DNA from: Deltaproteobacteria bacterium
GTDB lineage: Bacteria > Desulfobacterota > Desulfobacteria > Desulfobacterales > C00003060
DNA: 64,000 nucleotides
Direction of reading: 5' to 3'
NCBI GenBank assembly: GCA_003647275.1
Contig: QMMN01000002.1
Coordinates: forward strand, 21,726-85,725
How positions within the stretch are numbered: the stretch's first letter is position 1; each line of letters starts with the position of its first letter. A model generated the notes under the pieces. It searched no databases. It was not told the origin of the DNA and saw nothing but the letters and a program-made list of their open reading frames with translations. Of this stretch, positions 4,761 to 47,097 are shown in pieces. A program made the translations under genes and the position numbers.

Positions 4761-7031
4761 TTATTGGGACTCCAGGGAATCTTCAAAGATTTTGGATAAA
4801 CGCTGCTTCAGTCCCTCGGCTTCTGTGTCGTTCGGGAGTGAGCGGGCAAGTTCCCGGAACATCAGATATGCGTCAATGCGGGAAGCGGATTGGATAATTC
4901 CCCGCGCTTTCTTTATGAGGTCTCTTTTTTCCTCCTCTATATAAGTAAGAACGAGCCGTCGTTTTTTCCCTGCTTTGGCATCCAGTCTTGCTCCTTCAAG
5001 CAGGCTGGTCGCTTCTGACAACAGTCCCATTCTTGCCTTGAGTTTGGCCATGAGGAGGCGGATTTCAAAACCATTGTCCGGGATGATGTTATCAAGCTCC
5101 ATGGCGGCTTCATGGTGAAGGCCATTATCTGACAAGAAATAGATGTAAGAGATACGTTCAACCAGTTTCTCATCTTGCGACGTTTGATCCATGCCTTTGC
5201 CCACCCTTGCCATTTCCATTTGTTGTTCAGAAATTCGTTCCAGAATTTTTTCCGATTCAGTTTTCATTTTTGTAAAGGCCTCAAGATTTTTTCTGATTTC
5301 AGCACTCAGACGCCGCCCTGGTTCCGAGATAGATGCGATCTTTTGAGTCTCACGCTTGAGTTTGAACCAGATGGAAGACATATATTGATTTAGCAATGGG
5401 TTTTGAACCAAAAAATCCTGTATCTCCTTCCCGTCCTGATTGATTTGGTTTGCCAGTCCCTGGTCTATCTGGCCCCTCTTGAGCCTTTTGTCAAATTCTT
5501 CTAACGCCTTAATGCCGCGAGAGCAAATTTCCATTGTCTTTTGGAAGACCTTGGATAAGGCTTTCATACTGGATACAGGAAGCTTCTCTCTAACGGTCTC
5601 CAGAGATAAAGACGCAGATGGCAGCTTCTTTGAAAGGTCAGGCAGATTTTTACAGACCTCATCTATGTCCATTTCTAAAGTCCCCTCGATACGAGCGCCT
5701 GACAAAGTCGCGTTGATCGGTCTTGCTTCCGAGCATTTGATGTGCCACTCAAGGTGACGTTTAATATCTGAAAGGTGGGGAAAGGTCCTGACTATTGTAT
5801 TATGCATGCCAGGGGCCTTGATTAAACGAGGATCATCGGGCTCAAGGTGCCTCCTGAAGTGGTGCCCGTTAGCATGGGTAACATTGTCCACGGCCAGATC
5901 AAGTCCGATCAGGATAATGGGATCTGCCTCCAAGTAAACAGCCAGATTAAAGGCAAAAACGGCCACAGAGGTTCCTGTGCTTAAGGAGAGTCGGTGGTGC
6001 TTGTGGGAAGGAAGCATAGGGTAAAGTGCTTTTTGAGGTACGGCAAAACAAGGCCCAAGGTATTTTTTGACGAATTTAGGATGGGAGGAGGAAGAAAAAA
6101 TCAGCGGGGTCTGCTGGGCAAATCGGGTATGTTTTAGCATACCAAAAGACTCAATATTCTTATCAGATGTCAAGACGAAGTCTGCTGCAATGCCATTGGA
6201 TAGTAGGTTCCTCCAGGAGGCAGCAAATGCGAAAACAAACATCTTTTTTTGCGCCTGGCTTATTTTTTCCATGGACCGATCCAACGAGGGGCCAGGGCCT
6301 ACCAGAAGGACAGGCTTGCCCTTGACTAGAGATTTGAGTATTTCCACACCGGGCACCAGAGATACAATGATGGTGTTTTCGATCTCATTTTGAATTGAGG
6401 TCCTGCCAATTAGGGTGGCATTTTTTATCAGTACATTCGCATAACGATAGGCCTCCTCTATTTGTTTGCCCCATTTTTTATATTCAATGGATATCGCCTC
6501 GCTTCTGGGATCCACAATAACTTTAATTTTCTTATGTAGAAGCCCTTTGCTGAGGAGATGCAGAAAAAGATTCTCAATGGCCTTTTGGTCGGGCTTTACA
6601 ATGTGCAGGTTATCAGTTCTGATGGGCTCGACAAGGTCCACTTGGTGCAATGCCAGCTTAAGCAGCCAAGGATTTGGCTCCAGGACCATGATATGATGTC
6701 CATGGGCCATCTTTTGAAGAATTGCACTGACAGTATATCCCAGACCCATTCCCACCAGACAGGTCATACTACCGCTTGAAAGGTCCATGCCATGAATGAC
6801 CGAAAACTCTGCTTCAACAGAGGGGGATCTCTCATAATAGAGAACCTGGTTTCCGGATGATAGCCGAATCAGGAGATTAGCTGAACCGTCGTTGGTTGGC
6901 AGGGGGCTTATACCTGGGTCCGCTTGGGCGCCATCAAGCCAGGTGTGCAATTCCGGGTTAAGATCGAAGAGCGCCTCCATGTTCTTTTTAAAGATATGGC
7001 TGCCTTCGAGAGGTAGTTTTTGTTTTAACAT
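4761..7031 (-). CDS. maf: Motility accessory factor (Maf, DUF115/MptE-like) putative flagellin glycosyltransferase with a long helical C-terminal extension
   Basis: 756-aa ORF. DUF115 core motifs are VLLVGPGPSLDRS, FVLTSDKN and GTSVAVFAFNLAVYLEADPIILIGLDLA. N-terminus FKKNMEALFDLNPELHTWL. It lies next to the flagellin locus, convergent with the GT4 gene and divergent from the 1416-aa GT gene. Confidence 0.8.
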   Translation of the reverse strand: MLKQKLPLEGSHIFKKNMEALFDLNPELHTWLDGAQADPGISPLPTNDGSANLLIRLSSGNQVLYYERSPSVEAEFSVIHGMDLSSGSMTCLVGMGLGYTVSAILQKMAHGHHIMVLEPNPWLLKLALHQVDLVEPIRTDNLHIVKPDQKAIENLFLHLLSKGLLHKKIKVIVDPRSEAISIEYKKWGKQIEEAYRYANVLIKNATLIGRTSIQNEIENTIIVSLVPGVEILKSLVKGKPVLLVGPGPSLDRSMEKISQAQKKMFVFAFAASWRNLLSNGIAADFVLTSDKNIESFGMLKHTRFAQQTPLIFSSSSHPKFVKKYLGPCFAVPQKALYPMLPSHKHHRLSLSTGTSVAVFAFNLAVYLEADPIILIGLDLAVDNVTHANGHHFRRHLEPDDPRLIKAPGMHNTIVRTFPHLSDIKRHLEWHIKCSEARPINATLSGARIEGTLEMDIDEVCKNLPDLSKKLPSASLSLETVREKLPVSSMKALSKVFQKTMEICSRGIKALEEFDKRLKRGQIDQGLANQINQDGKEIQDFLVQNPLLNQYMSSIWFKLKRETQKIASISEPGRRLSAEIRKNLEAFTKMKTESEKILERISEQQMEMARVGKGMDQTSQDEKLVERISYIYFLSDNGLHHEAAMELDNIIPDNGFEIRLLMAKLKARMGLLSEATSLLEGARLDAKAGKKRRLVLTYIEEEKRDLIKKARGIIQSASRIDAYLMFRELARSLPNDTEAEGLKQRLSKIFEDSLESQ

Positions 7032-7340: not shown

Positions 7341-10300
7341 ATGCAACAACAGTTTCAGCAAATAATAACTGCCATTCATAAGAAAAGATGGTCCTTTCAA
7401 CCTTTAACCAAAAAGGAGCTCGTATTTCTTTTGGCAGATTGTATCCTGGATAGACGGCTCTTTTCCTCGCCCAACTGGAACTGGCGCTATGGTGGGGTCA
7501 GATACATCCCGGATAAACAGACCGATCCAGAGCCTTCAAAAATACTGGTTTTGCAATGGCCTGGGACATTGGGCGATGTGGCCATGAGCGCTCCGGTATT
7601 CTCCATATTAAGGCAAAAATATCCCCATGCAGAAATCTCCTTTTTATCTGGCAAAACAGCTCAGTATATCTTTATGGGCAACCCTGACATAGATGTTTTG
7701 ATGGACAATCCTCTTGACCCTTATTTAGAGAAGGTTATGCATGGGCGTTCCATTGACCTTGAGGCCCTGTTGAGAGACATCTCCAGCCTTGTCGAATTAT
7801 TGACAAAAAACGAATATATTCTCCTGGTCAATCTTCAGGTTTTGCCCATGTCGGCTGTCCTGGCTAAGCTGTCTGGAGCCAAGCATACGATCGGAATGAC
7901 CCTGACGCCCGATGGGATGCCTGTTATCCACGGAAATATCTGGGCGGCTTATCTATTTGGGGTTTCCGCAAGCCTCATGAGGAGATATAACCTGCTCCAC
8001 CGTACAGAGATCTTTAACCTGATGATTGATGAACAGGGGAGGTTTATACCTGACTCCACGCTTTACATCAATCATGAAGCGGCGGAGAATGTTCAGGCAT
8101 TTTTTGACCACCACAGGATAAAAGATGAAGATCTTGTGGTGGGCATCAATCCCATGGCCGGGACCCCGATCAGAAAGTGGGGGCATTACGATCAGTTGGC
8201 CAAAAGAATCAAAGATGAATTAGGAGCCAAGGTGATCGTCTTCGGGGCAAAGGCTGAAGAAGATAAGGTTGATGAAATTGTCCGAAGAGCAGGAAAAGAT
8301 GTTATCAAAGCCACACAGTTCAATTTACAGGAGCTGATGGCGGCCATCTGCGGTTGTGATCTCTTCATCACCAATGATACCGGCCCCATGCATTTGGCAT
8401 GTTTGCTTAAACGCAAAGTCATAGCCCTTTTCGGGCCAACGTCCTTTCAAGAAGTAGGGCCTTGGCAGACCGAATTCCACGTACTTCAGTCATCACTGTG
8501 CCGGGATTGCTACAAACAGGTGTGTCCCTATCCTGAAAAATACTGCATGAACCAGATAAAGTTGGAAGATGTTTTCAAGGTCGTGGAGAAGGTCGTGAAA
8601 GGCGAGCTTGTTGCTGACATTGGGGACCATCTAATTTATCGGTCGTCAAAGGATATAGATCCCCGTGAGGCTGAGGATGCGTTTCTTGGGCAGATGATTT
8701 TTCAAGTGTTCAAAGTAAAAGGCCAAGGCATAGAAAGGGCTCCGGAAAGACCCCCAGAGGCTTTTAGGGAGACCGAGGGGCTCATGAAGGAATACAGCCA
8801 TGTCAAGAGCATGGTTAAAAAGGCAATCAACTACTTCAATATGCCGGCATCCGTCAATCTACAAAAGCTCCAGGAGATCCATCAGTCTATCGAGAGTGTT
8901 GATGAGATTTTAAAACCCATCGTGGTGATCAATGCGCTTGAATTTTTGGACAGAAGGATTCCCTTAAAAGAAAACCTTGATGCCTATCGCAACTTCTATG
9001 ACAGTCTTCTCAAGGACCTTGAGATCATGATGAGTTGCATCAGTGCGCAACCCAAAAAGGCGGTCAGATTTGGTCAAGACGAGAAAAGAGGACAAGCCAC
9101 ATTGCCAATGGACGACAATAAAGATTCCATTCCTATGATTGCGGAGATTCATCACCATCCTTTGATTAGTGTGCACATGATCGTGTGGAACCAAGAGAAG
9201 TATATAGGCGATGCTATTAGAAGCGTATTAGATCAAACCTACCAAAACTATGAGCTGATCATTGTTGATGACGGGTCAACCGACAACACAAGACAAATCA
9301 TCGAAACTTTCAGATCCGATAAGATCAAATACCACCTTAAAGAACATAGTGGCGTTGTAGCATCAAGGAACTATGCCTGTGATAAATGTGCTGGTGATTA
9401 CATCGCATTCTTGGATTCAGATGACATGTACGAACCGACTATGCTTGAAAAAGAAGTAGCTACCTTATTGAGAAACCCTGACTTGGATGTGGTGTATACC
9501 AATCTTAAGATTATCGATGAAAACGGAAATGAAACAGGAGCCGTATGGACATACAAAGACTATGAGTCCCAAGAATTGATACCAGCTCTCTTTCGTGCTG
9601 GTCAAAATATTACGCCCTTCCCCTCGATGATGGTGACAAAGAGAATCTCAGATAAAGCGGGAGGGTTTGATTCAGATTTTATAATTAACGAAGACAGCGT
9701 TTATACTGCGAAGTTGGCAAAACACGGGAAATTTAAGCATATCAATCTTCCCCTTTATAAGTATCGTCGCCATGGTTCTAACATCTCCCACCGAAGAAGC
9801 AGTTTAAAAGAGAGATCGGCAAGCACCGCTTTGATGCTTACAAAAATGCTGGAAATGTTTTCAAAGGAAGAAATTTTTCCGGAAATTCACTGGGCTGCCA
9901 TGCCCGATAAAGCAAAAGAGGCAGAATTCAACTTCCAGGTGGCCAGGGTATTCTGGGAACATTGCAAGGCCTATTTAACACATGAATGTCATCATAACCT
10001 ATTGGAAGGAGCGAATACATTTTTGGGCAAATGCCTGACAGTCGATCCGACCCACAGAGGCGGGATCAATCTCGCCAAGGAGTTAAATTCATTGTCTGAG
10101 ACAATTCAGGATAGAAGTGGAGAGGCTCCGACCAAAGTTGAGGAGAAGGTTGAATCCACAAAACACAAACTAAGGATTCTTTACCTTGCAGACTGCCGAA
10201 GTCAACACACAAAAAGGTATGTGTGCTTTTTCAAGGACCGGGGCCATGAGGTCCATATCTTTGACACTTCCGAGCATGGGGAGGGCCTGGAGGGTATTCA

Positions 10301-11591
10301 ATTACACTTTCCCCAAACACCACAAAACGATGAATCTAACGACAAGTATGAAGACCTGTTTATCCAGCGTGTATTTCAGCTTAACAGCCTTATTGACCGA
10401 ATAAAACCTGACATCCTCCATGGTCATTACCTGACAGAGCGCTGCTGGTGGGGAGCACTCACGGGCTTTCAGCCCTATGTGCTCACATGTTGGGGGTCCG
10501 ATATATTTTTGGATACGAAACTTAACGATTTTAATCGGAGGTTTAGTGAGTTTTGTCTAAAGACAAGTCCCTTGGTCACAGCCGATTCCATGGATTTACT
10601 TCGGGCGTCCACAAACTTAAGAGGGTTTTCAGATGGTGTGAAATATATACCCTTTGGGATTGATGTGGAGCTGTTTAGACCGGGTCTTGATACCTCTTCT
10701 TTGGCCAAAAAATTAGGAATCAATGGATTAAGGGTTGTCCTCAGCCCCCGGCAGTTTAGACCTCCGGCCAATATAGACGTCCTCATAAAAGCGATTCCAA
10801 AGATCATATCCAAAATACCAAACACCGTTTTTATTTTAAAGAACTATCTAGGCGAAGGGACAGCCTATGAGGAATATAAAAAGTATCTTCATGACTTGGT
10901 CAAAGAACTTAATGTTGAGAGTCACGTCACCTTTATGGACAATGTGAGTTTTGATGAAATGCCTATCCTTTATAATCTTGCAGATGTGATGGTCACCTTG
11001 CGGGACACGGATGGCTCTTCCTGTTCCATGTTAGAATCTATGTCTTGTAAGACGCCGGTGGTAGCCAGTGACATTGAAAGCATGCGGGAATGGATTATGG
11101 ATGGGGAAAACGGAAGGATCGTTAACCAAAACGACCCAGATTCCGTCGCAGATGCCATTTCAGAAATATTACTGGATGATGAGAAAAGACGGAAATTCCA
11201 AGAAGCAAGCCATGCCATAGTTTGCCAGAAAGCAGATTATCGAAAAAACTGGCTTGAGATGGAACAGCTCTACTATGAGGTTAGTCAAAAGAGCATAGAG
11301 GGGCCCCTTTCAAGTGGTTTCCCAGATTCAGATATATCGATAATCTATGGGAATCTCCGAACAGGATGGCATTCTATCGCATCCCATAACCTTGATAAAG
11401 GGAGGGAGGCTTTTGCCAAGATACTGGAGGCTTCCCAGCTCACTGCGCACAGCTACATGAGGGCCTTAATTGGATTGGCAAGGATAGCTTGGATCAAAGG
11501 AGATACAAAGGAAGCTAAAGCCTATTACATGGGGTGTTTAAAACTTTTACAAGGCTTTGAGCTTGATACACGCCTGGACATCAAAGGATAG
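7341..11591 (+). CDS. Giant multi-domain glycosyltransferase: GT9 (heptosyltransferase-like) + GT2 + GT4 + C-terminal TPR
   Basis: 1416 aa.
- GT9 part, about aa 65-400: [65 protein letters not shown].
- GT2 part, about aa 608-830: [52 protein letters not shown].
- GT4 part, about aa 942-1310: [66 protein letters not shown].
- TPR-like tail: [25 protein letters not shown]. Confidence 0.8.
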   Translation: [1416 protein letters not shown]

Positions 11592-11836: not shown

Positions 11837-12574
11837 ATGTTGGCAGTGATTATGGCCGGAGGAGAAGGTACGCGCCTTAGACCCTACACAAAGGTTATTC
11901 CCAAGCCTTTGCTCCCCGTTGGAGATAAACCCATTCTGGAAATTCTCATAAGGCAGCTTAGAAATGAAGGGTTCAATGATTTGATCATCACAACGGGCTA
12001 TCAAGGAGATCTCATAAAGGCATATTTCCAGAACGGATCAAAATTCGGGGTGCATATCAGATATACAACCGAAAAGATCAGGCTGGGAACCGCCGGCGCG
12101 CTCTCCCTCATTGATCGAACAATAAAAGAACCTTTCCTTGTCATCAATGGAGATATTCTGACTGATCTCAGCCTAAAAAAGTTCATGAGCACCCATGTCT
12201 CCGACAAAGCTACTCTGACGGTGGGTATCGTTAAGTTCAAATTAGATATCCCTTATGGCGTGGTGCAATCCAATGGAAAAATATTTGAAAGCATCGAGGA
12301 GAAACCACGATATTTTTTTGATGTTGGCGCTGGCATTTACGGGGCCGATCCGGGGCTCCTTGATTATCTTCCAAAGGCGCGCAGGATGGATTTCCCTGAA
12401 CTCATCAAGATGTTAAAGAAAAAAGGAGAAAAGGTGATATGCTTTGAGGTGGAGGAATACTGGAAGGATATAGGCATCATGGAGGATTTTGAAGCGGTTC
12501 ATAAGGACATCGAGAATTGGGATCAAGACCGTCTATATCACGTATTTCGTCAGGACTCATCCGAAGCACGCTGA
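11837..12574 (+). CDS. Sugar-phosphate nucleotidyltransferase (NTP_transferase family, HddC/PtmE-like)
   Basis: The N-terminus MLAVIMAGGEGTRLRPYTKVIPKPLLPVGDKPILE carries the G-G-x-G-T-R-L signature. Also LGTAGAL and FLVINGDILTD. An RBS (AAGGAGAAG) precedes the ATG. Confidence 0.85.
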   Translation: MLAVIMAGGEGTRLRPYTKVIPKPLLPVGDKPILEILIRQLRNEGFNDLIITTGYQGDLIKAYFQNGSKFGVHIRYTTEKIRLGTAGALSLIDRTIKEPFLVINGDILTDLSLKKFMSTHVSDKATLTVGIVKFKLDIPYGVVQSNGKIFESIEEKPRYFFDVGAGIYGADPGLLDYLPKARRMDFPELIKMLKKKGEKVICFEVEEYWKDIGIMEDFEAVHKDIENWDQDRLYHVFRQDSSEAR

Positions 12575-12826: not shown

Positions 12827-14128
12827 ATGAAAATCACCTTGGTGCAGCCTAGACCAGGTAAATATAACGCCACCTACGTTCACGAACCACTCAATCTTGG
12901 ATATCTGGCAAGTTATTTAAAGGAGCGAGGATTTGATGAGGTGGGTATCATCGTCTCCGCATTTTGGGAAGATGATAAGGAAATCGTTAAACGATGTAGG
13001 GAATCGGATGTGGTAGGTTTTACGGCTACGTCGCCTATGATGGCACATGCTCTCTCTCTGGCAAAGGACATAAAGGGGAAAGATCCGGAAATCATAACGG
13101 TTTTCGGTGGGCCTCATCCGACAATAGAGCCCGATGGGACCCTCCAGAATCCAGCTGTGGATTATGTAGTCCGAGGTGAAGGGGAACAAACTTTTCTGGA
13201 ATTGATTGAATCAATCGATGCGTGCCGTTCAACACTTAAAATCAAGGGGCTCTCCTTTAAAGATAGGCATGGTTGCATTATCCATAATCCGAGACGTCCG
13301 CTTATAAGTGACTTGGATGTCCTTCCCTTTCCAGACCGGGATTTGCTTGGTCAAGCTCGTTTCCTTGACATTGGCTATGAGAAGTACGGTGATCGCGGAG
13401 CATGGGTCTTATCCAGTAGGGGCTGCCCCTTCAGATGCACCTATTGCGCCTCCAACAAGGTTTGGACAAGGACTTGGCGCGCACGTTCACCTGAGAATAT
13501 CATTGTCGAGATAAGGTCCTTAAAATTACACTATAACGTTGATCGCATAAACTTTGCCGATGACACGTTTACTATTTCCAAAAAGAGGGTCGTGGATTTC
13601 TGCAAGAAAATGATGATAGAAAAACTGGACGTTGTGTGGGCATGCAATGCTCGGGTTGACACTGTGGACGCGGAGCTGTTTGCCCTGATGAAACGCGCCG
13701 GGTGTACTGAGGTGTGGATGGGCGTTGAAAGTGGTTCGACAAAGATTTTGAAAGAGATAAAAAAGGAAATTACGCCCAAACAGATCATAGAGGCATTTAA
13801 GGGAGCCAAGGCAGCTGGTTTAAAGAGACGTGGATATTTTATGATTGGATCAAGGAGTGAATCTCTTGAGACCATAAAACAGACCGAGGCTCTTGTTGAT
13901 GCCATAGAACCTGATCGGCTCGCTTTTAGCATTATGACCCCTTACCCAGGGTGTGAAGAATTTGAGCTCTGGAAGAAATACAGCGGAAACCACAAGATCG
14001 AATGGTCTGAGATAGACCTATTGGAGACCGAAGCGGTAATGATGGAAACCCGGTTTCTTTCTAAAGACGAATTGCGAGCTGAACACCGTAGGCTCAAGGA
14101 AAAATACGCTTCCATATGGCGGGTGTGA
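12827..14128 (+). CDS. B12-binding-domain radical SAM enzyme (class B type)
   Basis: The N-terminal B12-binding-like fold is MKITLVQPR..LNLGYLASYLKERGFDEV..VVGFTA. The radical SAM cluster motif is SSRGCPFRCTYCAS (CxxxCxxC). It is followed by elp3-like GVESGS. Confidence 0.85.
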   Translation: MKITLVQPRPGKYNATYVHEPLNLGYLASYLKERGFDEVGIIVSAFWEDDKEIVKRCRESDVVGFTATSPMMAHALSLAKDIKGKDPEIITVFGGPHPTIEPDGTLQNPAVDYVVRGEGEQTFLELIESIDACRSTLKIKGLSFKDRHGCIIHNPRRPLISDLDVLPFPDRDLLGQARFLDIGYEKYGDRGAWVLSSRGCPFRCTYCASNKVWTRTWRARSPENIIVEIRSLKLHYNVDRINFADDTFTISKKRVVDFCKKMMIEKLDVVWACNARVDTVDAELFALMKRAGCTEVWMGVESGSTKILKEIKKEITPKQIIEAFKGAKAAGLKRRGYFMIGSRSESLETIKQTEALVDAIEPDRLAFSIMTPYPGCEEFELWKKYSGNHKIEWSEIDLLETEAVMMETRFLSKDELRAEHRRLKEKYASIWRV

Positions 14129-14250: not shown

Positions 14251-14414
14251 TCATGGATTTCAAAAAAGTTTTCAGACAGATTTTTTCGCTCACTTAAGGT
14301 AAAAAATCGCGCCCTTTAGATAATGGTTAGAAGCATCCTGAGACAGAGGCCAGCCCGAAGAAAATAGTTGTAGACTTTATGACGGTTGGACGTCGGGGTT
14401 ACAGAAGGAATTCA

Positions 14415-16058
14415 ATGAGCAACCAGACTCAAAACAAGAAAGCTTTGCCAAAGATTTCTCTTTGCATGATCGTGAAGAATGAAGAAGAGATGCTTCCAAA
14501 GTGTCTCAGCAGTGTTAAGCATTTTGTGGATGAAATCATTGTGGTGGACACGGGTTCAACCGATAGGACCGTTGACATAGCCCAGAGTTATGGCGCAAAG
14601 GTCTATCACCATCCCTGGGAGGATGACTTCAGCAAGCACCGAAACCAGTCCATTTCTTATGCCGCCGGAGATTGGATCTTCATTATGGATGCGGATGAGG
14701 CGTTAAGGCCTGGAGATGGCGTAAAGATTCGAGAGGCGATTTCACACCCTGAAATCGATAGTGTGATGGTTGTCGTGGTCAATTTTTTTAATCAGGGAAC
14801 AAGTCAGAGTTTATTCAATCAGGTGCGTTTGTTCAAAAGAGATCCAGCCATCTTTTACTCGGGCATTGTTCACAATCAGCTGACCGGATACCAGTCAACC
14901 GTGGCCTGTTCCGCACAGATCTATCACTATGGTTATGATTTGGGCCAGGAGAGGATGCAGGCAAAGTTTGTTCGTACTTCCTCTCTGCTAAAGAAAAGAA
15001 TAAAACAGGACCCTGAAAATTTTCGCCATTATCATGACCTCGCTGTCAGCTATTCCATGAACAGAATGTTCGATGAAGCTGTCTCGGCAGGTATCAAGGC
15101 GATTGAATTAGCCAAAAACACTGAAAAAAAAGGCGGGGTTCTGATTCTGTGGACCTACTTTATTGTGGCATCCTCGTTGCTGATACAGAGAGATTTTCAG
15201 GGGGCAGAGAAGTATGCCCTTGAGGCACTGAAAAGATTTCCTAACCATCTTGATTCCCATTTTATTCTTGTAATGGCTTATCACGGATTGAAGGATTGGG
15301 CCCGTGTGAAAGAGGTTTCCGATGACTATTTCAATCTTCTCAAGGCCGTGCAGGAGCACCCCGGTCGCTTTGGCTATATTGTCAACAATACCACTGGAGA
15401 AGCTTGGCGCGTTCATCTGGTTTTAGGAGATTATTACCTGGAACAAGGGGATGTTCATCGGTGTAAGGAGGCATTTGATCATGCTTTTTCCGGTGCGCCA
15501 GTGGCATTTGAATGCCTGAAGATTATTGCCGACAGTTATAAAAACCGATCCTTATGGAAGGAGGCCGCCTATTATTACCAGCAGGCCTTCAAGGAAAAGG
15601 GTGACTTTCTGGGGGCCTTGTTGGGTCTGGCCTTGGCAAAGAATCGCCTTGGTAAAAAGAGAGAGGCCATCCAATATTATGAAAGGGCTTTGGAATTAGA
15701 ACCTGATTCCATTGAGGCCCTGGTCAACTTGGGCGACCTTTACTGTGAACAAGGGGAGGAAGATCTTGCTCAAAAATTCTATGAGAAGGCCCTGGGCATT
15801 GAATCCAAACTCGTCAATGTTTCACTTCGGCTGGCTAACTTTTCCGTGCAAAATGGTGAACTTGAGAAATGCGTGAGCTATTGTGAAAATATTCTTGAAA
15901 GCCTTGGTCTGTCGTTCAACCGCCCACTGGAAAGCGTATCGGATTTGGCTGATCTCTTTTTGATTATTGGCCATGAGTTGGATAAATCTGGGAGGGATGA
16001 CCTGTTTAGGGAGGCCATGAAGGTCGCGTTAAATCTAAAACCAGAACTAATAGCATAG
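14415..16058 (+). CDS. GT2 glycosyltransferase with C-terminal TPR domain (paralogue 1)
   Basis: GT2 motifs are ISLCMIVKNEEEMLPKCLSSVKHFVDEIIVVDTGSTDRTVDIA, HHPWEDDFSKHRNQ and DWIFIMDADE. The C-terminal half is TPR repeats. ATG 14415 (RBS GAAGGA) is preferred over the ORF-track start at 14379. Confidence 0.85.
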   Translation: MSNQTQNKKALPKISLCMIVKNEEEMLPKCLSSVKHFVDEIIVVDTGSTDRTVDIAQSYGAKVYHHPWEDDFSKHRNQSISYAAGDWIFIMDADEALRPGDGVKIREAISHPEIDSVMVVVVNFFNQGTSQSLFNQVRLFKRDPAIFYSGIVHNQLTGYQSTVACSAQIYHYGYDLGQERMQAKFVRTSSLLKKRIKQDPENFRHYHDLAVSYSMNRMFDEAVSAGIKAIELAKNTEKKGGVLILWTYFIVASSLLIQRDFQGAEKYALEALKRFPNHLDSHFILVMAYHGLKDWARVKEVSDDYFNLLKAVQEHPGRFGYIVNNTTGEAWRVHLVLGDYYLEQGDVHRCKEAFDHAFSGAPVAFECLKIIADSYKNRSLWKEAAYYYQQAFKEKGDFLGALLGLALAKNRLGKKREAIQYYERALELEPDSIEALVNLGDLYCEQGEEDLAQKFYEKALGIESKLVNVSLRLANFSVQNGELEKCVSYCENILESLGLSFNRPLESVSDLADLFLIIGHELDKSGRDDLFREAMKVALNLKPELIA

Positions 16059-16132: not shown

Positions 16133-19108
16133 ATGACTCATAAAATTAGGTTAGCATATGTACACAGTTATTTGCCGTTAGGTGGGGTTGAGAATCACAT
16201 TCTTCAACTGTGCAGGCACCTGGACAGGAATCAGTTTGAAATCGAGGTCTGTCTCTTCCGAGGAGGCGGGCCTATGCTGCCCCTGTTTGAAGAAATCGAT
16301 ATACCAGTGGAAATCATTCCTGTGCTTGACCAAAAAGGGGCCATTAGCGAGAGAAAATTCCAAGACTTCGTGAAAAAACTGAGAGAATTTGACGTGTTCC
16401 ACAGTTGGTATGGAGGCGGGCAACTACACGTCGGGTTTCAGGCAGCTTATATGGCCAAAGTCCCTGTTCAGGTGCAGAGCATTGCCTGGCCGGTCCCAGC
16501 CTTTGGCCAACATTTTGATGCCGTGATCCTGGAAACCGACTTCGTGTTGAGAATTCAGCAAAAAGCCGGCGTAAAGTCTCGTATGGTGCGCATCAATCCG
16601 GGAATCGACCTCTCACGTTTCGATCCCAAAACTATCCGCCCTGCGGTCCAGTTCGATGGTCAGGTTGTCGGGCGGGTAAGTCGCCTTGTGCCAGAGAAAG
16701 ATCCCGAATCCTTTGTGCGGTCTGCAGCCCTGGTTCAGAAGCGCCACCCAGAGGTGAATTTCCTCATTGTGGGGGATGGTCCTCTTCGCCATGAGCTTGA
16801 GGTGTTGGCTGGTCAGCTTGATGCTAATGTTCAATTTTATGGAGAAACCACGAACGTGCCTGGCGTTTTAGCTGCCATGGATGTCTTTGCTTATTCCACC
16901 CTAGGCGACTCGTTCGGCTTCGTCAATGCCGAGGCCATGGCCATGGCAAAGCCTGTCATCAGCACTCGAGTTGCCGCCATCCCCGAAGTGGTAGAAGATG
17001 GTCGAAGTGGAATTCTGGTTCCTCCGAAAGATGTGGACATGCTATCCGATGCGATCTGCTACTTAATTGAGCATCCCGAGGAGGCCAAGCGGTTGGGACA
17101 AAGAGGACGCCAGATCATCGAGCAGCGATATAACCTCAAGCGATATATAAGTCAACATGCACGGCTGTATGAGGAACTGTACTTCCAAAAACAAAATTCC
17201 AAGCATGGGCACCTTATCACTCCGAGGATTCAGCAGTCATCTCAAAATAATCATTCAGTTGAGACTATAGGGAGCCTAAGCACTGCAACGACTTCCTCGC
17301 GCAGAAAACGGATTCTCATTATCCAGGAAAATGGCCGCCACGAGCGCAACCGCCAGTTTCGGGAATGCTTTGCTCTGCAGAGAGCATTTGGTCACCTGGG
17401 CGTGTCCGCAGACGTGTGGGGTTTGGGGCACGACAATTTCCGTCAACCGTTTGATGACATCGTTGGTCAGTATGACGCCGTGCTTTCACTGGAAAATTAC
17501 GACACAGGCTGGCACCCAGACCTTGCAACGCTGAAGATACCTAAAGCCTTCTGGTGCATCGACGCGCACATGGGCGTTGAACGGTATCTGGATTTTGTGC
17601 GCCGCCACCGGTTTGACTTGGTTTTCAATGCCACAGAACACTTTGTTGACCGCTTTACCGGACTTGCTGAAACCAGTCTTTGGTTGCCGAACGCATATGA
17701 TAGTTTTTTGGTGGACAAGATTTTTAATGTTCAGAAAACAGTGTCCCTTGGCTTCTGTGGCAACGTTGTCAACCGTGGGGAGTGGATCGAATATCTCAAT
17801 GAGCGTTGGAACCTTAGGCACGACGAGATGGTCATTGGCCCCGACATGGTACGTGCGATTAACAGTTATCAGGTCCACTGGAATCGTAATTTCTCGATTG
17901 ACATCAACTACCGCACCTTCGAGACTCTGGGTTGCTGCACCTTCCTGCTTACGAACTACACGCCGGGCCTCGAAAAACTCTTCACGTTGGGTAAGCACCT
18001 CGTGGTTTATGAAACCCGGGACGATCTTGACGAGAAGATTTCTTACTACCTTACGCATCCTGAAGAGCGGGAACAGATCGCCAGACAGGGGTATGATCAT
18101 GTCCGGAAGAACCACAAATATATCCATCGCGCGGAGCAAATCCTCGATGCGCTAGGCTTCACCGTTTCTGACGCGGTACACTATAGTCAGAGAATTCAGA
18201 TTTATGAAATTACGCAGAGAATGATCTCTATCAAGGAATATCTGTTCGTGTCTGGCGCCACAAAATCGGGAACAACTTTATTGGCTAACGCCCTGAGTTT
18301 CTCGGAAAGAGTTTCATTCTTGAGAAATGCAGATGGAAAGATAGAAGAAGGCCAGTGGGTTCAGGACGTTTATGAGTGGGGAAAGGGAAATCAAGATCTC
18401 ACAGAAGAATATCACATGACAGAAGATCACCCCCTGGCAACCGCAGAAAACCGGATTCGGTTGTACAGGTGTTGGCTTCGCTACTGGGACATAAAAAAGC
18501 CTATTTTGGCTGAAAAAAGTCCTCATAACATCATTAAGACAAGATTCCTTCAGGCTCTGTTTCCGAATTCCAAGTTCATCATACTGGTGAGGAACGGTGT
18601 CGTCCAAGCGACCGGGGAAACGCTGCAGCAAAAAAGATCTCCCCTTGTTTGCTGCCAAGAGTGGGTGAATGCCTACCAGATGTTGATGCGCGATTTGCCC
18701 CACTTAAACGAGTACCTGATCGTGCGCTATGAAGATTTGACAAACAATGTCGAAGCAACGTTTGATAAGATCTGTAAGTTTATCGGGATCCCAAGGATTA
18801 ATGTCAAAGATAAGTATTTCTATGTCCATGCCTTTCGGGATGGAATTAAACGGCCAGATTTCAACAAAATCCAGGATATGAATAGGCCACATATCCAGAA
18901 TTTTCTTACTAGATTTGACCAGGAAACCCAGCAGGCAATGCTTCGCATTTGTGAGCCTGCAATGACAATGTTTGGCTATACCACAGATATAGCCAAGTAT
19001 CATGAATACATAAAAAACCATAACTATCGTCTCTTGGTCACGGATACTGGTAAACAAGAAACACAAAGAGAAAAACAAACAAAAACCTCTCTCGCCTGTA
19101 TCCAATGA
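16133..19108 (+). CDS. Tri-domain enzyme: GT4 + CgeB/DUF3880-like GT + C-terminal sulfotransferase
   Basis: 991 aa.
- GT4, about aa 1-350: RLAYVHSYLPLGGVENH, DSFGFVNAEAMAMAKPVISTRVAAIPEVVEDGRSGILV.
- CgeB-like GT, about aa 390-680: INYRTFETLGCCTFLLTNYTPGLEKLFTLGKHLVVYETRDDLDEKISYYLTHPEEREQIARQGYDHV.
- Sulfotransferase, about aa 700-960: 5'-PSB loop FVSGATKSGTTLLANAL, 3'-PB region ILAEKSPHNIIKTRFLQALFPNSKFIILVRNGVVQATGE, and IVRYEDLTNNVEATFDKICKFIGI. Confidence 0.8.
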   Translation: MTHKIRLAYVHSYLPLGGVENHILQLCRHLDRNQFEIEVCLFRGGGPMLPLFEEIDIPVEIIPVLDQKGAISERKFQDFVKKLREFDVFHSWYGGGQLHVGFQAAYMAKVPVQVQSIAWPVPAFGQHFDAVILETDFVLRIQQKAGVKSRMVRINPGIDLSRFDPKTIRPAVQFDGQVVGRVSRLVPEKDPESFVRSAALVQKRHPEVNFLIVGDGPLRHELEVLAGQLDANVQFYGETTNVPGVLAAMDVFAYSTLGDSFGFVNAEAMAMAKPVISTRVAAIPEVVEDGRSGILVPPKDVDMLSDAICYLIEHPEEAKRLGQRGRQIIEQRYNLKRYISQHARLYEELYFQKQNSKHGHLITPRIQQSSQNNHSVETIGSLSTATTSSRRKRILIIQENGRHERNRQFRECFALQRAFGHLGVSADVWGLGHDNFRQPFDDIVGQYDAVLSLENYDTGWHPDLATLKIPKAFWCIDAHMGVERYLDFVRRHRFDLVFNATEHFVDRFTGLAETSLWLPNAYDSFLVDKIFNVQKTVSLGFCGNVVNRGEWIEYLNERWNLRHDEMVIGPDMVRAINSYQVHWNRNFSIDINYRTFETLGCCTFLLTNYTPGLEKLFTLGKHLVVYETRDDLDEKISYYLTHPEEREQIARQGYDHVRKNHKYIHRAEQILDALGFTVSDAVHYSQRIQIYEITQRMISIKEYLFVSGATKSGTTLLANALSFSERVSFLRNADGKIEEGQWVQDVYEWGKGNQDLTEEYHMTEDHPLATAENRIRLYRCWLRYWDIKKPILAEKSPHNIIKTRFLQALFPNSKFIILVRNGVVQATGETLQQKRSPLVCCQEWVNAYQMLMRDLPHLNEYLIVRYEDLTNNVEATFDKICKFIGIPRINVKDKYFYVHAFRDGIKRPDFNKIQDMNRPHIQNFLTRFDQETQQAMLRICEPAMTMFGYTTDIAKYHEYIKNHNYRLLVTDTGKQETQREKQTKTSLACIQ

Positions 19109-22100: not shown

Positions 22101-22379
22101 GAAGCGATCGAAAATCTTGGAAAATGCATGGAAATAAAAAGAGACTATCTAAAAGCAATAAAGTGGTTTAAACGAGCACTGGAAATCAAACCTGATGAAG
22201 TTAGCCTGTTAAACGCCTTGGGAAATTGTTTTGTTCAGATAGAAGATTTGATGAATGCAAAAGACGTTTATACCAAATCTTTTCACCTTGACAGCAGCCA
22301 GGATACCATCAGGACAATTCTTGAGGAGATGGAGAGAATTGGGAAAGAAAAAAAAGACCTCGCCAAAGAGTATGAATAG
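19173..22379 (+). CDS. Tetra-domain enzyme: polysaccharide-deacetylase-like (NodB/DUF2334-type) + GT4 + GT2 + TPR
   Basis: 1068 aa.
- N-terminal domain: MIIRIDDYPHGD ... VAMHGFSHGWHEF (the deacetylase assignment is tentative).
- GT4, about aa 270-590: IAIVTETMNYISGGVRCIAEVLNRLAARGY, HFEGLPLPPLEAMAAKCAVIATYVGASDYLLNGYNALVV.
- GT2, about aa 645-860: VSAIVSTYNAERFIRGCLEDLEAQT..LEIIVVNSGSEQNEE, ITNANTDDRH.
- TPR tail: NNLGVIAFQQGEIDRAISYFTRVIEID, ALGNCFVQIEDLMNAKDVY. Confidence 0.75.
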   Translation: MIIRIDDYPHGDLIIYNRLLADRSYDHRRHVYHFLRPFEERGVSYVLGVSPGLINRESDLFFLRSLHHCEVAMHGFSHGWHEFAETWHSITETWPYGGEFAHASREEVREKIQRGLEILSDFKIRKFIAPFNAYTQELLDVLNEFGFEMIMGGRQTLQFGMDRLDHGNLQLDVCVPPLCNDSHKIIPHLDQAIVEQKTILLHWIFEQAANVSYWDQIAEAVQHAESHRVVSPKHAEPYLARSPVEVRNVHTPIRRPSSALATGKELLHSLPIAIVTETMNYISGGVRCIAEVLNRLAARGYQTACYVTLSDLRCEWLTTDFPILPVSELLNFRGILISPFSPTAEIVARSNAIGKFYWVHSYEPKFPEITGRPDSWRVMSENSYRLPELQYFTTSSYVRMILELIYGLEVLSPLVPGGVDISLFRPGPKGNRPLRVLFLSRENPFRGAHDVVHALRIVRDQGVDLDVYVMGQAINMEGLPHRLVPPLPQSEFAQLLGSADIFIHASHFEGLPLPPLEAMAAKCAVIATYVGASDYLLNGYNALVVPPKRPDKIAEALLCLATDADLRARFGEGGYRTVTNNYTWEHTVDRLEEALSEGMARIGYGSMATTAWMSSHEPKPSTSTHFHVSELEKSRDPHKPGEAPFGEGDVEDDWEYLVSAIVSTYNAERFIRGCLEDLEAQTISDRLEIIVVNSGSEQNEEMIVKEFQEKYPNIKYIRTPQRETVYAAWNRGIKASRGKYITNANTDDRHRPDAYERMVGVLEARPDIALVYADVIITEKENETFEKCTPIGICGWIDWDRRRLLEGRCFMGPQPMWRRSLHDEYGYFDESFVTSGDYEFWLRVSQTNNFFHIPTPLGLYLKSSDSIEHLNRKQQQEENEKIVAMYKKAEASGDIIRRFYSDNEEDLIRVHNRKGEELFKTGNVKVAKVIFEQILSKNPKMVDPLNNLGVIAFQQGEIDRAISYFTRVIEIDEDCFEAIENLGKCMEIKRDYLKAIKWFKRALEIKPDEVSLLNALGNCFVQIEDLMNAKDVYTKSFHLDSSQDTIRTILEEMERIGKEKKDLAKEYE

Positions 22380-24000
22380 AAAACGCACGCCTACGATTTC
22401 ACTGTGCATGATCGTAAAAAATGAAGAACAGTTTCTTGGCCAGTGCTTGAATAGCGTGAAAGATTATGTGAACGAAATGATCGTTGTGGATACGGGTTCA
22501 ACAGACAAGACCATTGAGATCGCCAAAGGCTTTGGTGCAAAGGTTTACCATCACCCATGGGAGAATGATTTCAGCAAACATAAAAACCAGGCGATTGCCC
22601 ACGCGACCGGAGACTGGATTTTCATCATGGATGCTGATGAAGAGCTAAGGCAGGGTTCTGGTCCTATTTTAAAAAAGGCTGTAGCGAATACGCAAATAGA
22701 CGCTGTTATTGTCACACTTGTCAGCTATTTTAACAATAAAGCGAGCCAATCTTGGGAAAGCAAGATAAGGCTTTTCAAAAATCACCCCTCGATCCGTTAT
22801 GAAGGAATCGTCCATGAGCAGCTCGTGGGCTATAAGTCCGCCCGAATGTATCCTATTTATTTGCAACATTATGGATATGATTTAGACCCTGAACAACAGC
22901 AAAAGAAGTTTGAAAGGACGTCTTCGCTCTTAAAACGGCAGATAAAAGAAGACCCCGAAAATTATTGGCATCATCACAACCTCGCGGTTTGCTATTCCAG
23001 CAACTTTATGTTTTCAGAGGCCGTGGAGGAGGGAATGTGCGCCCTGGCCTTAGCTGAAGACCAGGGCCTACGAGGCCCGACCCTGTTATGGACACTCCAT
23101 ATTGTAGCGGCCTCATACCTGAAGCTGGGCAATCTATCCAAGGCAGAAGATTTAGCACTGAAAGCCCTTAAGCAGTCAAAGAATCACTTGGACCCCCATT
23201 TCATTCTGGTTCTCATCTACCACCAGCAGAAGCAATGGAAGAGCCTTGAGCGCCATGCCAAAGCATTTTTTCGGGTTGTGGAGCTGATGAAATCCTCGCC
23301 AGAAAGTTTTGCGGGCTCAATTATTAATATGGCCGGTGAGGGCTGGCGGGTGCGCTTAGCCATGGGCGATCTCCATTTGGAGAGAAATGAGTTAGAAAAA
23401 GCCAGGGCTGCCTTTGAAATAGCCCTGACCGAAACGCCCGTGCCATTTGAATGTCTCAAAATTATTGCAGATTGCTATAAGAACCATTGCTTATGGAAAG
23501 GTGCCGCTCATTTTTATCGACAGGCAATCAATGAAAAACAGGACTTTTTGGAGGCTGTTTTTGGTCTGGCCTTGTCCAAAAATCGTCTCGGTCAGAAGAA
23601 TGAGGCCATTAGATATTATGAAAAGGCCTTGGAATTAAAGCCCGATTCCATTGAGGCGCTGGTCAATCTGGGAGACCTTCACTATGAACAAGGCCTTGAA
23701 GACCTGGCTCAAGAATTTTATGAAAGAGCCATGGATGTTGAATCCAATCTCATCAACGTTTCCCTTCGGCTGGCCAATTTTTCCGTGAAAAAAGGCGAAA
23801 TTGAGAAATGCGTGAGCTATTGTGAAAATATTTTCATAAGCCTTGGTCTGTCGTGCAACCGCCCACTGGAAAGCGTATCGGATTTAGCCAATCTCTTTTT
23901 GATTATCGGCCACGAGTTGGACAAGGCTGGGAGGGATGACTTGTTCAGGGAGGCCATGGAGATCGCGATCAGAATCAAGCCGGACTTGCTCCAAGGTTAA
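22372..24000 (+). CDS. GT2 glycosyltransferase with C-terminal TPR domain (paralogue 2)
   Basis: MNRKRTPTISLCMIVKNEEQFLGQCLNSVKDYVNEMIVVDTGSTDKTIEIA, HHPWENDFSKHKNQ, DWIFIMDADE, then TPR repeats. ATG 22372 overlaps the upstream stop (tATGAATAG), which suggests translational coupling. The ORF-track start at 22255 lies inside the upstream gene. Confidence 0.85.
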   Translation: MNRKRTPTISLCMIVKNEEQFLGQCLNSVKDYVNEMIVVDTGSTDKTIEIAKGFGAKVYHHPWENDFSKHKNQAIAHATGDWIFIMDADEELRQGSGPILKKAVANTQIDAVIVTLVSYFNNKASQSWESKIRLFKNHPSIRYEGIVHEQLVGYKSARMYPIYLQHYGYDLDPEQQQKKFERTSSLLKRQIKEDPENYWHHHNLAVCYSSNFMFSEAVEEGMCALALAEDQGLRGPTLLWTLHIVAASYLKLGNLSKAEDLALKALKQSKNHLDPHFILVLIYHQQKQWKSLERHAKAFFRVVELMKSSPESFAGSIINMAGEGWRVRLAMGDLHLERNELEKARAAFEIALTETPVPFECLKIIADCYKNHCLWKGAAHFYRQAINEKQDFLEAVFGLALSKNRLGQKNEAIRYYEKALELKPDSIEALVNLGDLHYEQGLEDLAQEFYERAMDVESNLINVSLRLANFSVKKGEIEKCVSYCENIFISLGLSCNRPLESVSDLANLFLIIGHELDKAGRDDLFREAMEIAIRIKPDLLQG

Positions 24001-35102: not shown

Positions 35103-35176
35103 AAAACCATTCAAAGTGTGCCCGTCTGCATACTTGCTGGTTGACGACAATCCACCTTTCATCTTGCCATTAGTAA

Positions 35177-35255
35177 GTGAAGCCTCCCCCCGCCCTTCCG
35201 GACGGGGGTTCTGCCTGACGGCAGCGCTTCGCGTCCGGGGAGCAGGCCGGTCAAT
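35177..35255 (-). repeat. Dispersed GC-rich intergenic repeat, family 1, copy 2 (inverted relative to copy 1)
   Basis: gtgaagcctccccccgcccttccggacgggggttctgcctgacggcagcgcttcgcgtccggggagcaggccggtcaat is the reverse complement of the element at 14174-14250. It starts 75 bp after the HD-GYP stop codon. Confidence 0.85.
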
Positions 35256-35309
35256 AGCTTTTTAGCATGCGCCAGAGGCAGTTTTGGGGTTTACCCATAA
35301 TATGCAAGA

Positions 35310-35325
35310 TGGTATAGTGATTGCA
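35310..35325 (+). promoter_or_regulatory. Sigma-54 promoter candidate upstream of the PilZ-kinase pair
   Basis: TGGTATAGTGATTGCA has GG at 35311-35312 and GC at 35323-35324, with a perfect TTGCA -12 element. It lies about 85 bp upstream of ATG 35411. Confidence 0.6.
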
Positions 35326-35410
35326 TGCTGTGATTTCCTGTGACTATCTTGTTCCTTTAGATTAAATTGATCCTTTTGGCTGAACCAAATTTCTGAATGT
35401 GGGGGAAAAT

Positions 35411-46827: not shown

Positions 46828-47097
46828 GCCACGTCCTCAAAGCCCTCCATAGTGATTCATAGCATCATCATCGTCAAAAACCTGACAGGTCTCTTTTTAA
46901 TTAGTGCCTGTTGATAGTTGTCAGTTGTCCATTGCCAAAACCGTAAAACCAGTTGATTGAACTAGATCGCAAAAAGAGATTCAGGCGTTCTCATATCTCA
47001 CCTAACTATTTGAAAATATAGATACAACTGGCTACTGACAACGGACTGCTGACATTACCCCTCTTTCCCAACCTCCCAATATTCACAAGCATTTCCT

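Follow-up and report, generated by a model that had tools for sequence, protein, structure and literature searches.

A sulfotransferase domain fused to two glycosyltransferase domains in the flagellar glycosylation island of a Desulfobacterales-like bacterium

Positions 21,726 to 85,725 of contig QMMN01000002.1, from the Deltaproteobacteria bacterium assembly GCA_003647275.1, are a flagellar and chemotaxis super-locus, and the first 26 kb of this stretch are a glycosylation island. The whole 64,000-nucleotide stretch is referred to below as the window, and positions are counted from its first letter unless another locus is named. One gene of the island encodes a 991-amino-acid protein in which a GT4-type glycosyltransferase (GT) domain, a low-complexity linker, a second GT domain of the CgeB-like family Glyco_trans_1_2 (GT1_2) and a C-terminal domain of the 3′-phosphoadenosine 5′-phosphosulfate (PAPS)-dependent sulfotransferase superfamily follow one another (Table 1). 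The nearest relatives of the source organism are metagenome-assembled genomes (MAGs) labelled Deltaproteobacteria or Desulfobacterales.

The three-domain protein and its sulfotransferase domain

The preliminary description of this DNA had reported a sulfotransferase that shares a single chain with two GTs, a GT4 and a CgeB-like one, and Pfam matches above the family thresholds agree with it. In the N-terminal domain, Glyco_transf_4 (PF13439; 39.5 bits against a threshold of 28.5) covers residues 17–162 and Glycos_transf_1 (PF00534; E 2.4e-34; 118.8 bits against 26.4) covers residues 177–327. Glyco_trans_1_2 (PF13524; E 1.8e-40; 138.6 bits against 25) follows at residues 543–672. The motif DSFGFVNAE, read from the translation of the GT4 domain, is a D-x7-E variant of the E-x7-E motif of the family, and the NCBIfam GT4 matches to this domain are partial and all below cut-off. 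Among the related loci searched with tblastn, the GT4 domain is found on the source contigs only (L001 and L002), and an independent homologue from another sample, P0002, carries one as well. The N-terminal GT4 domain is a lineage-specific addition. Since the stand-alone homologues of the remaining part (P0004–P0007) begin at the equivalent of residue 392, with ‘K(R)ILIIQENGRH’, the 991-residue protein can be described as a GT4 domain joined by a low-complexity linker to a GT1_2–sulfotransferase module.

Gene calls in public records start at Met48 (window position 16274), behind a strong GGAGG, and give a protein of 944 residues (P0001); the upstream ATG at 16133 has only a weak ribosome-binding site. 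The longer form is preferred here because the match to the GT4 N-domain begins at residue 17 and because P0002 is also 991 residues long. A start at Met48 would cost the GT4 N-domain its first strand and glycine loop. P0002 shares 77% identity with the query, covers 98% of it in the alignment and has an identical three-domain layout; by part, identity is 80–84% in the GT domains, 72% in the sulfotransferase core, 54% in the linker and 27% in the C-terminal tail. The possibility that the fusion is a frameshift or assembly artefact was rejected, as P0002 shows the same 991-residue architecture and the sequence itself was independently assembled from a second dataset (L002). The maximum mean hydropathy in a 19-residue Kyte–Doolittle window is 1.16 and no transmembrane segment is predicted; lacking a hydrophobic segment, the protein is taken to be soluble and presumably cytoplasmic.

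The C-terminal domain is recognised by Sulfotransfer_3 (PF13469) at residues 704–887 (E 8e-22; 79.0 bits against a gathering score of 27) and by Sulfotransfer_1 (PF00685) at residues 704–902 (E 8.9e-10; 38.8 bits against 22), which answers the profile search proposed in the preliminary description. The domain start given there (18230, residue 700) lies four residues before the Pfam domain, and its end (19108) is the stop codon. The C-terminal motifs reported as PAPS-binding signatures lie at the places quoted for them. In an alignment of 18 family members, comprising the query domain, seven fused homologues and ten stand-alone relatives (29–39% identity), the 5′-phosphosulfate-binding loop comes after the strand ‘YLFVSG’ and contains T710-K711-S712-G713-T714-T715, with K711 encoded at 18263–18265. 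Lysine or arginine at position 711, followed by S-G-T, is kept in all 17 of the aligned members that cover this region. The loop aligns with GVPRSGTT of the tyrosylprotein sulfotransferases TPST1/2, and K711 with R78 of TPST2. In the 3′-phosphate-binding region, K795 of the EKSP motif (18515–18517) aligns with TPST2 K158 and R820 (18590–18592) with R183; no family member departs from E794, K795, S796, P797 or R820, and the TPST2 counterparts read ‘NKDP’ and ‘LLMVRDG’. For TPST2 we presume the residue numbering and roles of the structure literature, with R78 catalytic, E99 the base, and K158 and R183 as named above. An FIGI motif at residues 883–886 lies downstream of the RYEDL motif.

E739 and G740 of the EEGQ motif are invariant in the same alignment and Q741 is nearly so. 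E739 lies 28 residues after K711, a spacing that we take to resemble that of the glutamate base in TPST2 and in NDST and 3-OST enzymes; because of its invariance and this spacing, E739 is a candidate general base. The motifs are kept across the 18 relatives and the core is 72% identical to that of P0002, which suggests that the domain shows no sign of decay. The C-terminal domain is very probably an active PAPS sulfotransferase.

A structure prediction, also proposed in the preliminary description as a check, bears out the sulfotransferase fold. The AlphaFold2 (AF2) model of residues 690–991 has a predicted local distance difference test score (pLDDT) of 86.8, with the final residues below 50, and a predicted template-modelling score (pTM) of 0.86. 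When this model was compared with the PDB by Foldseek, all 33 matches with an E-value of at most 0.001 were PAPS-dependent sulfotransferases (probability 0.97–1.00), among them TPST2 and TPST1, the sulfotransferase domains of CurM and OLS, NDST1, 3-OSTs, Stf1, Stf9 and cytosolic SULTs. The top match is TPST2 (3ap1; E 1.5e-8; template-modelling score, TM, 0.59), and a profile of the 18 family members matches TPST2 in the PDB with an E-value of 8.6e-18. Both comparisons put the sulfotransferase match far beyond chance. Membership of the TPST family was considered and rejected: identity to TPST is only 17–21%, TM is about 0.6, and the acceptor-side segment with the E99 base is unaligned. The domain belongs to the PAPS-dependent sulfotransferase superfamily (Sulfotransfer_3) and not to the TPST family.

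The module in other genomes and the slot behind the GT1_2 domain

The GT1_2–sulfotransferase module is rare, forming only eight clusters (at 90% identity) in 5.8 billion proteins. These are the target itself, the three-domain homologue P0002, four proteins of about 600 residues that consist of the module alone (P0004–P0007), and two in which the module is fused N-terminally to GT1 and GT2 domains, with or without tetratricopeptide repeats (TPR; P0003 and P0008). In a scan of one genome per species, the whole module is found in a single species-representative genome, the MAG Zod_Metabat.1361. Seven further genomes match the GT1_2 domain only, at 42–73% identity, and include Desulfosarcina alkanivorans PL12, two Desulfobacterales MAGs, a Geobacter MAG and two Verrucomicrobiota MAGs.

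Every module locus with enough flanking sequence is flagellar (5/5: the window, L003/L004, L005, L018 and L019). In L003/L004, flagellin and FliD are found 6 kb downstream of the module, and in L019, FlaF/FlbT lie 3 kb downstream. L005, from the MAG GCA_016930835.1, has the order flagellin, module, DUF2334-GT, FliD, FliS, FlaG, and L018 shares it, so that in both the module stands between flagellin and FliD. The DUF2334-GT gene, which encodes a protein with a deacetylase-like DUF2334 domain and GT domains, is the recurrent partner of the module. It comes directly after the GT1_2 gene in L005, L011, L012, L016 and L018, and it is fused into one polypeptide with the module in P0003 and P0008 and with the GT1_2 domain in P0009. 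The pair shows Rosetta-stone behaviour (L003 7661–14290; L019 5806–9636); in L003, DUF2334 has a gene of its own upstream, and the GT1-GT2-TPR part is fused behind the GT1_2–sulfotransferase module. Elsewhere in L003/L004 (5987–6859), the run of glycosyltransferase genes is broken by a fragment of a DDE transposase together with a gene of the MerR family. Such an interruption fits islands that are prone to recombination.

Orthologues of the GT1_2 domain in flagellar islands share 55–78% identity. Some lack a tailoring domain, and the others are followed by a sulfotransferase, an FkbM domain or a class-I methyltransferase. The forms without a sulfotransferase (55–73% identity) are found in loci with Maf (L012, L016), with flagellin and FliD (L015) or with the DUF2334-GT partner (L011, L013, L014). 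According to Pfam, the position of the sulfotransferase is taken by FkbM in D. alkanivorans PL12 (L016 9983–11545; NZ_AP021874.1, about 744,789–746,351) and in Desulfobacterales bin589 (L011), and by a class-I S-adenosylmethionine (SAM)-dependent methyltransferase followed by GT1 in two Verrucomicrobiota proteins (P0012 and P0015). In P0009, Pfam finds no tailoring domain, and GT1 and GT2 stand directly behind GT1_2. FkbM is a family of O-methyltransferases acting on sugars and natural products. In a neighbour-joining tree of the GT1_2 domains, which carries no support values, the sulfotransferase-bearing forms interleave with one FkbM-bearing and one modifier-less form, and the forms with a class-I methyltransferase make up a separate clade.

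Judged from these sequences, the C-terminal position after GT1_2 is a slot in which domains that tailor glycans have been swapped in evolution. Transferases of small groups are interchangeable there, and the most likely role of the sulfotransferase is therefore to decorate the sugar on which the adjoining GT acts, in the way that a methyltransferase would in sister genomes; this is the strongest functional argument of the analysis. As relatives carry a methyltransferase or nothing in the slot, related bacteria would put sulfate, methyl or nothing at one glycan position. The flagellar link that the preliminary description had drawn for the enzyme is made much stronger by the five flagellar loci, and the methyltransferases in the slot of the orthologues point to glycan tailoring.

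Beyond the module, a profile of the Sulfotransfer_3 subfamily retrieved 649 representative clusters at an E-value of at most 1e-30, mostly stand-alone proteins of about 270 residues. Some subfamily members are fused to GT2 and methyltransferase domains. P0102 is one such GT–sulfotransferase fusion, on a 6.4-kb contig with GT2 neighbours only, and P0090 is another, whose surroundings are a non-flagellar glycan cluster that contains two additional sulfotransferases. As GT2–sulfotransferase fusions exist in the subfamily, in non-flagellar clusters, a fusion of a GT with a sulfotransferase is not new in itself; and since P0102 and P0090 have no visible flagellar neighbours, the flagellar link is specific to the GT1_2–sulfotransferase module and not to the subfamily. 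In L007 (1415–2233 and 11241–12233), a distance of about 9 kb separates one stand-alone relative, P0047 (35% identity), from a gene for an adenosine 5′-phosphosulfate (APS) kinase domain, and P0047 adjoins a TauE sulfite-exporter-like gene. This APS-kinase gene is the only PAPS-pathway neighbour seen in any of the loci and is only weakly suggestive.

The glycosylation island and flagellar genes of the window

With the exception of Maf, the island genes lie on one strand and lead straight into those for flagellin, FliD, FliS and FlaG downstream (Table 1). In addition to the genes listed, Pfam identifies a methyltransferase, a DUF3880/GT1_2 protein and a GT4 in the island. The Maf protein has a partial NCBIfam match to ‘flagellin modification protein PseD’. 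Maf is a flagellin glycosyltransferase family, and its members are known to work on flagellin ahead of export (PMC4065374). The B12-binding radical-SAM enzyme beside the sugar-1-phosphate nucleotidyltransferase suggests that the predicted glycan may contain an unusual, C-methylated or rearranged sugar. Altogether the island encodes about 13–14 glycosyltransferase domains, Maf included, which implies a long or branched glycan.

Four paralogous GT2+TPR combinations are present, three as separate genes (14379–16058, 22255–24000 and 24112–26118) and one as the C-terminal half of the DUF2334-GT partner. Their N-termini are near-identical in the motif SLCMIVKNEEE.LP.CLSSVK...VVDTGSTDRT, and they resemble flagellin-directed GT-TPR enzymes. 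The open reading frame (ORF) of the partner and the one that follows it overlap by 125 nt; with the publicly called start of the latter, at about 22339 (553 residues), the overlap is about 40 nt.

The flagellin is the presumed glycan carrier. Its central variable region (residues 170–310) contains 37 Ser/Thr residues, and four of its nine Tyr residues are in the same region; in public gene calls it starts 20 codons later and has 380 residues. FliD could be an alternative carrier or glycosylation substrate. At about twice the usual size, it contains three repeats of about 95 residues (approximately residues 375–470, 770–870 and 895–990) with 37–47% mutual identity, and in the relatives L003–L005 it is 1146–1170 residues long.

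The genes after FlaG encode response regulators, HD-GYP and PilZ proteins, CheB/W/A/R/X/Y and two sigma-54 activators, and FlgB/C, FliE/F/G/H/I/J/K, FlgD and FlgE are found further in the window. Encoded in two regions, 32846–36870 and 45430–51260, are a response regulator of the HD-GYP type, PilZ and GHKL-kinase proteins, and a pair of sigma-54-dependent response regulators on either side of an 839-residue TPR protein. The gene content suggests control of the flagellum by cyclic di-GMP and RpoN.

All window ORFs of at least 150 residues were scanned against Pfam, and the remaining gaps hold CheY, FlgB, FlgC, FliE and FlgE. The Pfam matches of the window include neither a flippase nor a polymerase nor a polyprenyl-phosphate transferase; in the island there is no ABC exporter either, and hydrophobicity analysis revealed no multi-pass membrane protein among its ORFs. 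As the target protein is soluble and a flippase, a polymerase, a polyprenyl-phosphate transferase and a multi-pass protein are lacking, direct cytoplasmic glycosylation of protein is favoured over a lipid-linked polysaccharide.

Table 1. Features of the glycosylation island and adjoining flagellar genes, with positions in the window; parts of the three-domain protein are listed beneath it.
Position	Strand	Feature	Evidence or remark
4761..7031	−	Maf/MptE-like motility-associated factor	PF01973, E 1.3e-32
7341–11591	+	GT9 (heptosyltransferase-like), GT2 and GT4 in one 1416-aa polypeptide	Pfam
11837–12574	+	Sugar-1-phosphate nucleotidyltransferase	Pfam, NCBIfam
12827–14128	+	B12-binding radical-SAM enzyme	Best NCBIfam matches HpnJ, BchE and P-/C-methyltransferases, partial and all under cut-off
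14379–16058	+	GT2-TPR protein	Pfam
16133..19108	+	Three-domain protein, GT4–linker–Glyco_trans_1_2–Sulfotransfer_3, 991 aa	ORF, Pfam
16133..17167	+	GT4-type GT-B glycosyltransferase domain, aa 1–345	Pfam Glyco_transf_4 and Glycos_transf_1
17168..17305	+	Ser/Thr/Gln-rich low-complexity linker, aa 346–391	Joins the GT4 domain to the two-domain module
17306..18202	+	Glyco_trans_1_2 (CgeB-like) domain, aa 392–690	Pfam PF13524
18203..19027	+	Sulfotransferase domain, aa 691–965	PF13469, AF2, Foldseek
18251..18283	+	5′-phosphosulfate-binding loop SGATKSGTTLL, aa 707–717	Family alignment, TPST1/2 alignment
18344..18355	+	EEGQ motif	E739 (18347–18349), candidate catalytic base
18512..18619	+	3′-phosphate-binding region EKSPHNIIKTRFLQALFPNSKFIILVRNGVVQATGE, aa 794–829	EKSP and strand FIILVRNG
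18725..18739	+	RYEDL motif, aa 865–869	R-Y-E-D (R865–D868) invariant in 18/18; aligns with ‘YYEQL’ of TPST2
19028–19105	+	Non-conserved C-terminal tail, aa 966–991	Identity to P0002
19173..22379	+	Partner, DUF2334 (deacetylase-like), Glycos_transf_1, Glycos_transf_2 and TPR, 1068 aa	Pfam
22255–24000	+	GT2-TPR glycosyltransferase	Pfam
24112–26118	+	GT2-TPR glycosyltransferase	Pfam
26444..27646	+	Flagellin	Flagellin_N, Flagellin_C
27891..31427	+	FliD cap protein, 1178 aa, 26% Ser/Thr	FliD_N, FliD_C
31518		FliS	Pfam
32477		FlaG	Pfam

Proposed function and comparison with known systems

In our judgement it is fairly probable that this protein is a soluble assembly-line enzyme which O-sulfates, in the cytoplasm and in a PAPS-dependent reaction, a sugar of a flagellin O-glycan. 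The analysis shows the domain identities, the conservation of the motifs, the fold, the solubility, the flagellar neighbourhood at five loci and the domain swaps; catalytic activity, PAPS as the donor, a sugar as the acceptor, flagellin as the carrier and the order of the steps are what we infer. Flagellin, or possibly the Ser/Thr-rich giant FliD, would be O-glycosylated in the cytoplasm by the island enzymes, with the TPR domains of the neighbouring enzymes probably recruiting the substrate. The GT4 and GT1_2 domains may each add a sugar to the growing glycan, after which the sulfotransferase domain would move sulfate from PAPS to a hydroxyl of the sugar installed by GT1_2, or of one beside it. 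K711 would be the catalytic residue of the 5′-phosphosulfate loop, K795 would stabilise the transition state, R820 would bind the 3′-phosphate and E739 would probably serve as the general base. The modified protein would be exported through the flagellar type III system after glycosylation.

Several observations weigh against this function. When the family profile is aligned with TPST2, the region of E99 falls between two aligned blocks, so that the catalytic base is unmapped by the alignment, and the 3′-phosphate-binding Ser191 of TPST2 is matched only approximately, by T827/G828. The closest solved structures are protein-tyrosine and not carbohydrate sulfotransferases. The stand-alone relatives of the domain (31–39% identity) that were examined, P0047 and P0050, lie outside flagellar loci, and all carriers of the module are uncultured MAGs or metagenome contigs. 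Pfam scans of the ORFs and gaps of the 64-kb window found no ATP sulfurylase, APS kinase or PAP phosphatase, in line with the earlier remark that PAPS-synthesis genes are missing from it. The AF2 model of both module domains (residues 386–991, from a 7-sequence alignment; pLDDT 62.8, pTM 0.43) is too poor to show coupling of the active sites. The preliminary description had envisaged that one enzyme adds sugar and sulfate in a concerted way, and this idea lost ground on account of the low pTM of that model, the natural domain swaps, and a linker between GT1_2 and sulfotransferase that ranges among homologues from about 25 to about 75 residues (P0003). Because of the swaps, the two domains are better regarded as autonomous modules acting in sequence, and not as strictly concerted.

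The sulfated glycan that the island might build could have a target outside the flagellum, for instance some other glycoprotein that is secreted or exposed at the surface, or an envelope polysaccharide; the island would then be merely located beside the flagellar genes or co-regulated with them. The GT2–sulfotransferase fusions in glycan clusters without visible flagellar genes (P0090, and P0102 on its short contig) and the non-flagellar contexts of stand-alone relatives lend this some weight, and the acceptor protein is only presumed. It is nevertheless unlikely, as the module loci are flagellar in five cases out of five, and flagellin and FliD enclose the gene in two of these; as the island contains Maf and several GT2-TPR proteins, which are typical of direct flagellin glycosylation; and as none of the flippase, polymerase, ABC exporter, polyprenyl-phosphate transferase and multi-pass membrane protein types looked for is found in it. 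A flagellar target would also be compatible with sulfation of Tyr or Ser/Thr side chains of flagellin or another protein, in the manner of TPST and RaxST. We regard this as quite improbable, even though TPST1/2 are the best matches in sequence and structure and the flagellin offers nine tyrosines, four of them central. The resemblance to TPST is a distant one, with the acceptor-side E99 region unaligned, and the carbohydrate sulfotransferases NDST1, 3-OSTs, Stf1 and Stf9 match too. Moreover, the domain is covalently tied to glycosyltransferases, and its slot holds FkbM-type methyltransferases in orthologues.

If the acceptor is a sugar, it could be sulfated before transfer, as a nucleotide-sugar or free-sugar precursor, with GT1_2 transferring the already sulfated sugar. 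Here the nucleotidyltransferase and radical-SAM enzyme of the island suggest an unusual activated sugar, and a sulfotransferase–GT fusion is equally compatible with a ‘modify, then transfer’ order. The modifier-less orthologue P0009, on the other hand, implies that GT1_2 works with an unmodified donor. To our knowledge, the characterised carbohydrate sulfotransferases, among them the enzymes for heparan sulfate, Nod factor and trehalose, have glycans or free sugars as substrates and none acts on nucleotide-sugar donors, and sulfation of a precursor is rather improbable. The absence of PAPS genes nearby in the window would also be expected of a catalytically dead domain retained as a scaffold or nucleotide-binding module. 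This is highly improbable, given that the motifs for PAPS binding and catalysis are invariant or nearly so in fused and stand-alone relatives, and that the core is 72% conserved while the linker and tail have drifted to 27–54%. N-sulfation of an amine exposed by DUF2334, by analogy with the logic of NDST in a bacterial form, is improbable at best; DUF2334 has no specific coupling to sulfation, since it is found beside the methyltransferase variants too.

O-sulfation of a flagellin glycan is the preferred function. Its wider consequence, namely that flagellar filaments of this Desulfobacterales-like lineage carry sulfated O-glycans made wholly in the cytoplasm, the first in Bacteria, and that the slot exchanges sulfate, methyl and no modification among close relatives, is a proposal whose chances we consider evenly balanced. 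Flagellin glycans are known to be decorated with methyl, acetyl, acetamidino and phosphate-linked groups. No report of a sulfated bacterial flagellin glycan, or of a sulfotransferase in a flagellar glycosylation island, was found in the full-text literature searched, which holds few subscription journals and makes this result suggestive and not conclusive. The locus combines a known enzyme fold with a known island type in a previously undescribed way, with a new predicted chemistry. If the proposal is true, it would add a new chemistry to bacterial protein glycosylation and show that heavily charged glycans are able to pass the export channel of the flagellum. One would expect a filament surface that is so strongly anionic to influence recognition by phages and predators, adhesion and metal binding, and exchange in the slot would diversify that surface, for instance against phages or grazers or for adhesion. 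A slot that holds a sulfotransferase, FkbM, a class-I methyltransferase or nothing behind much the same GT is a natural experiment for glyco-engineering, to which D. alkanivorans PL12, with its FkbM variant, offers a cultured entry point. A soluble bacterial GT–sulfotransferase fusion could also serve the enzymatic synthesis of sulfated glycans.

Among known flagellin glycosylation systems, the GT-TPR enzymes GmaR of Listeria and FlmG of Caulobacter glycosylate flagellin directly in the cytoplasm before export. The GT2+TPR and Maf architectures among the island neighbours resemble those of the GmaR, FlmG and Maf systems. Unlike the island described here, these systems attach single sugars or nonulosonic acids and not the product of about ten GT domains, and we know of none that includes a sulfotransferase. 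Human TPST2 and TPST1 (PDB 3AP1 and 5WRI) are the best structural and sequence matches of the sulfotransferase domain, with R78, K158, R183 and YEQL corresponding to K711, K795, R820 and RYEDL. The TPSTs, however, are stand-alone enzymes anchored in the Golgi membrane that sulfate peptide tyrosines, whereas the domain considered here is presumably cytoplasmic and is fused to two GTs. NDST of heparan-sulfate synthesis, another Foldseek match (1NST, 8CCY), is similar in that it tailors a glycan with several domains in one enzyme, of which the C-terminal one is a PAPS sulfotransferase, and a deacetylase-like DUF2334 is present in the partner protein of the island. It differs in being a eukaryotic Golgi enzyme with a deacetylase, and not a glycosyltransferase, in the same chain.

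Sulfated glycoconjugates are generally described as rare in Bacteria, with the synechan of cyanobacteria as the best-known case (PMC8205485). The cyanobacterial XssA and XssE are stand-alone synechan sulfotransferases encoded in a Wzx/Wzy cluster, and show that bacterial enzymes of this kind can sulfate glycans (PMC8205485). Together with the stand-alone proteins P0041–P0050 and the GT2–sulfotransferase fusions P0090 and P0102, they share a Pfam family with the sulfotransferase domain of the window. Synechan, in contrast, is a Wzx/Wzy-type exopolysaccharide and not a protein-linked glycan, and the GT1_2–sulfotransferase module is confined to its eight clusters.

The archaeal precedent invoked in the preliminary description holds in so far as sulfated archaellin glycans exist. 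In Halobacterium salinarum, Agl30 and Agl31 (VNG1056C and VNG1057C) sulfate the N-glycan of archaellin and the S-layer (PMC11980604). No other enzymes were found for which experiments have established sulfation of a glycan on the protein of a prokaryotic motility filament. They are stand-alone archaeal enzymes of an alkaline-phosphatase/sulfatase-like fold that belong to lipid-linked N-glycosylation, whereas the present domain has the P-loop PAPS fold, is fused to GTs and is located in a bacterial flagellin-type island. Because of the different fold, the archaeal sulfotransferases were rejected as homologues of the domain (PMC11980604), and the precedent is one of analogy and not of homology. 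Other comparators share the architecture of the module itself: in the GT1_2–methyltransferase fusions of D. alkanivorans PL12, bin589, P0012 and P0015, a GT1_2 domain 55–73% identical to that of the target, with the partner gene downstream, carries its modifying domain in the same C-terminal slot. These fusions differ in SAM-dependent methylation in place of sulfation, and none has the extra N-terminal GT4 domain.

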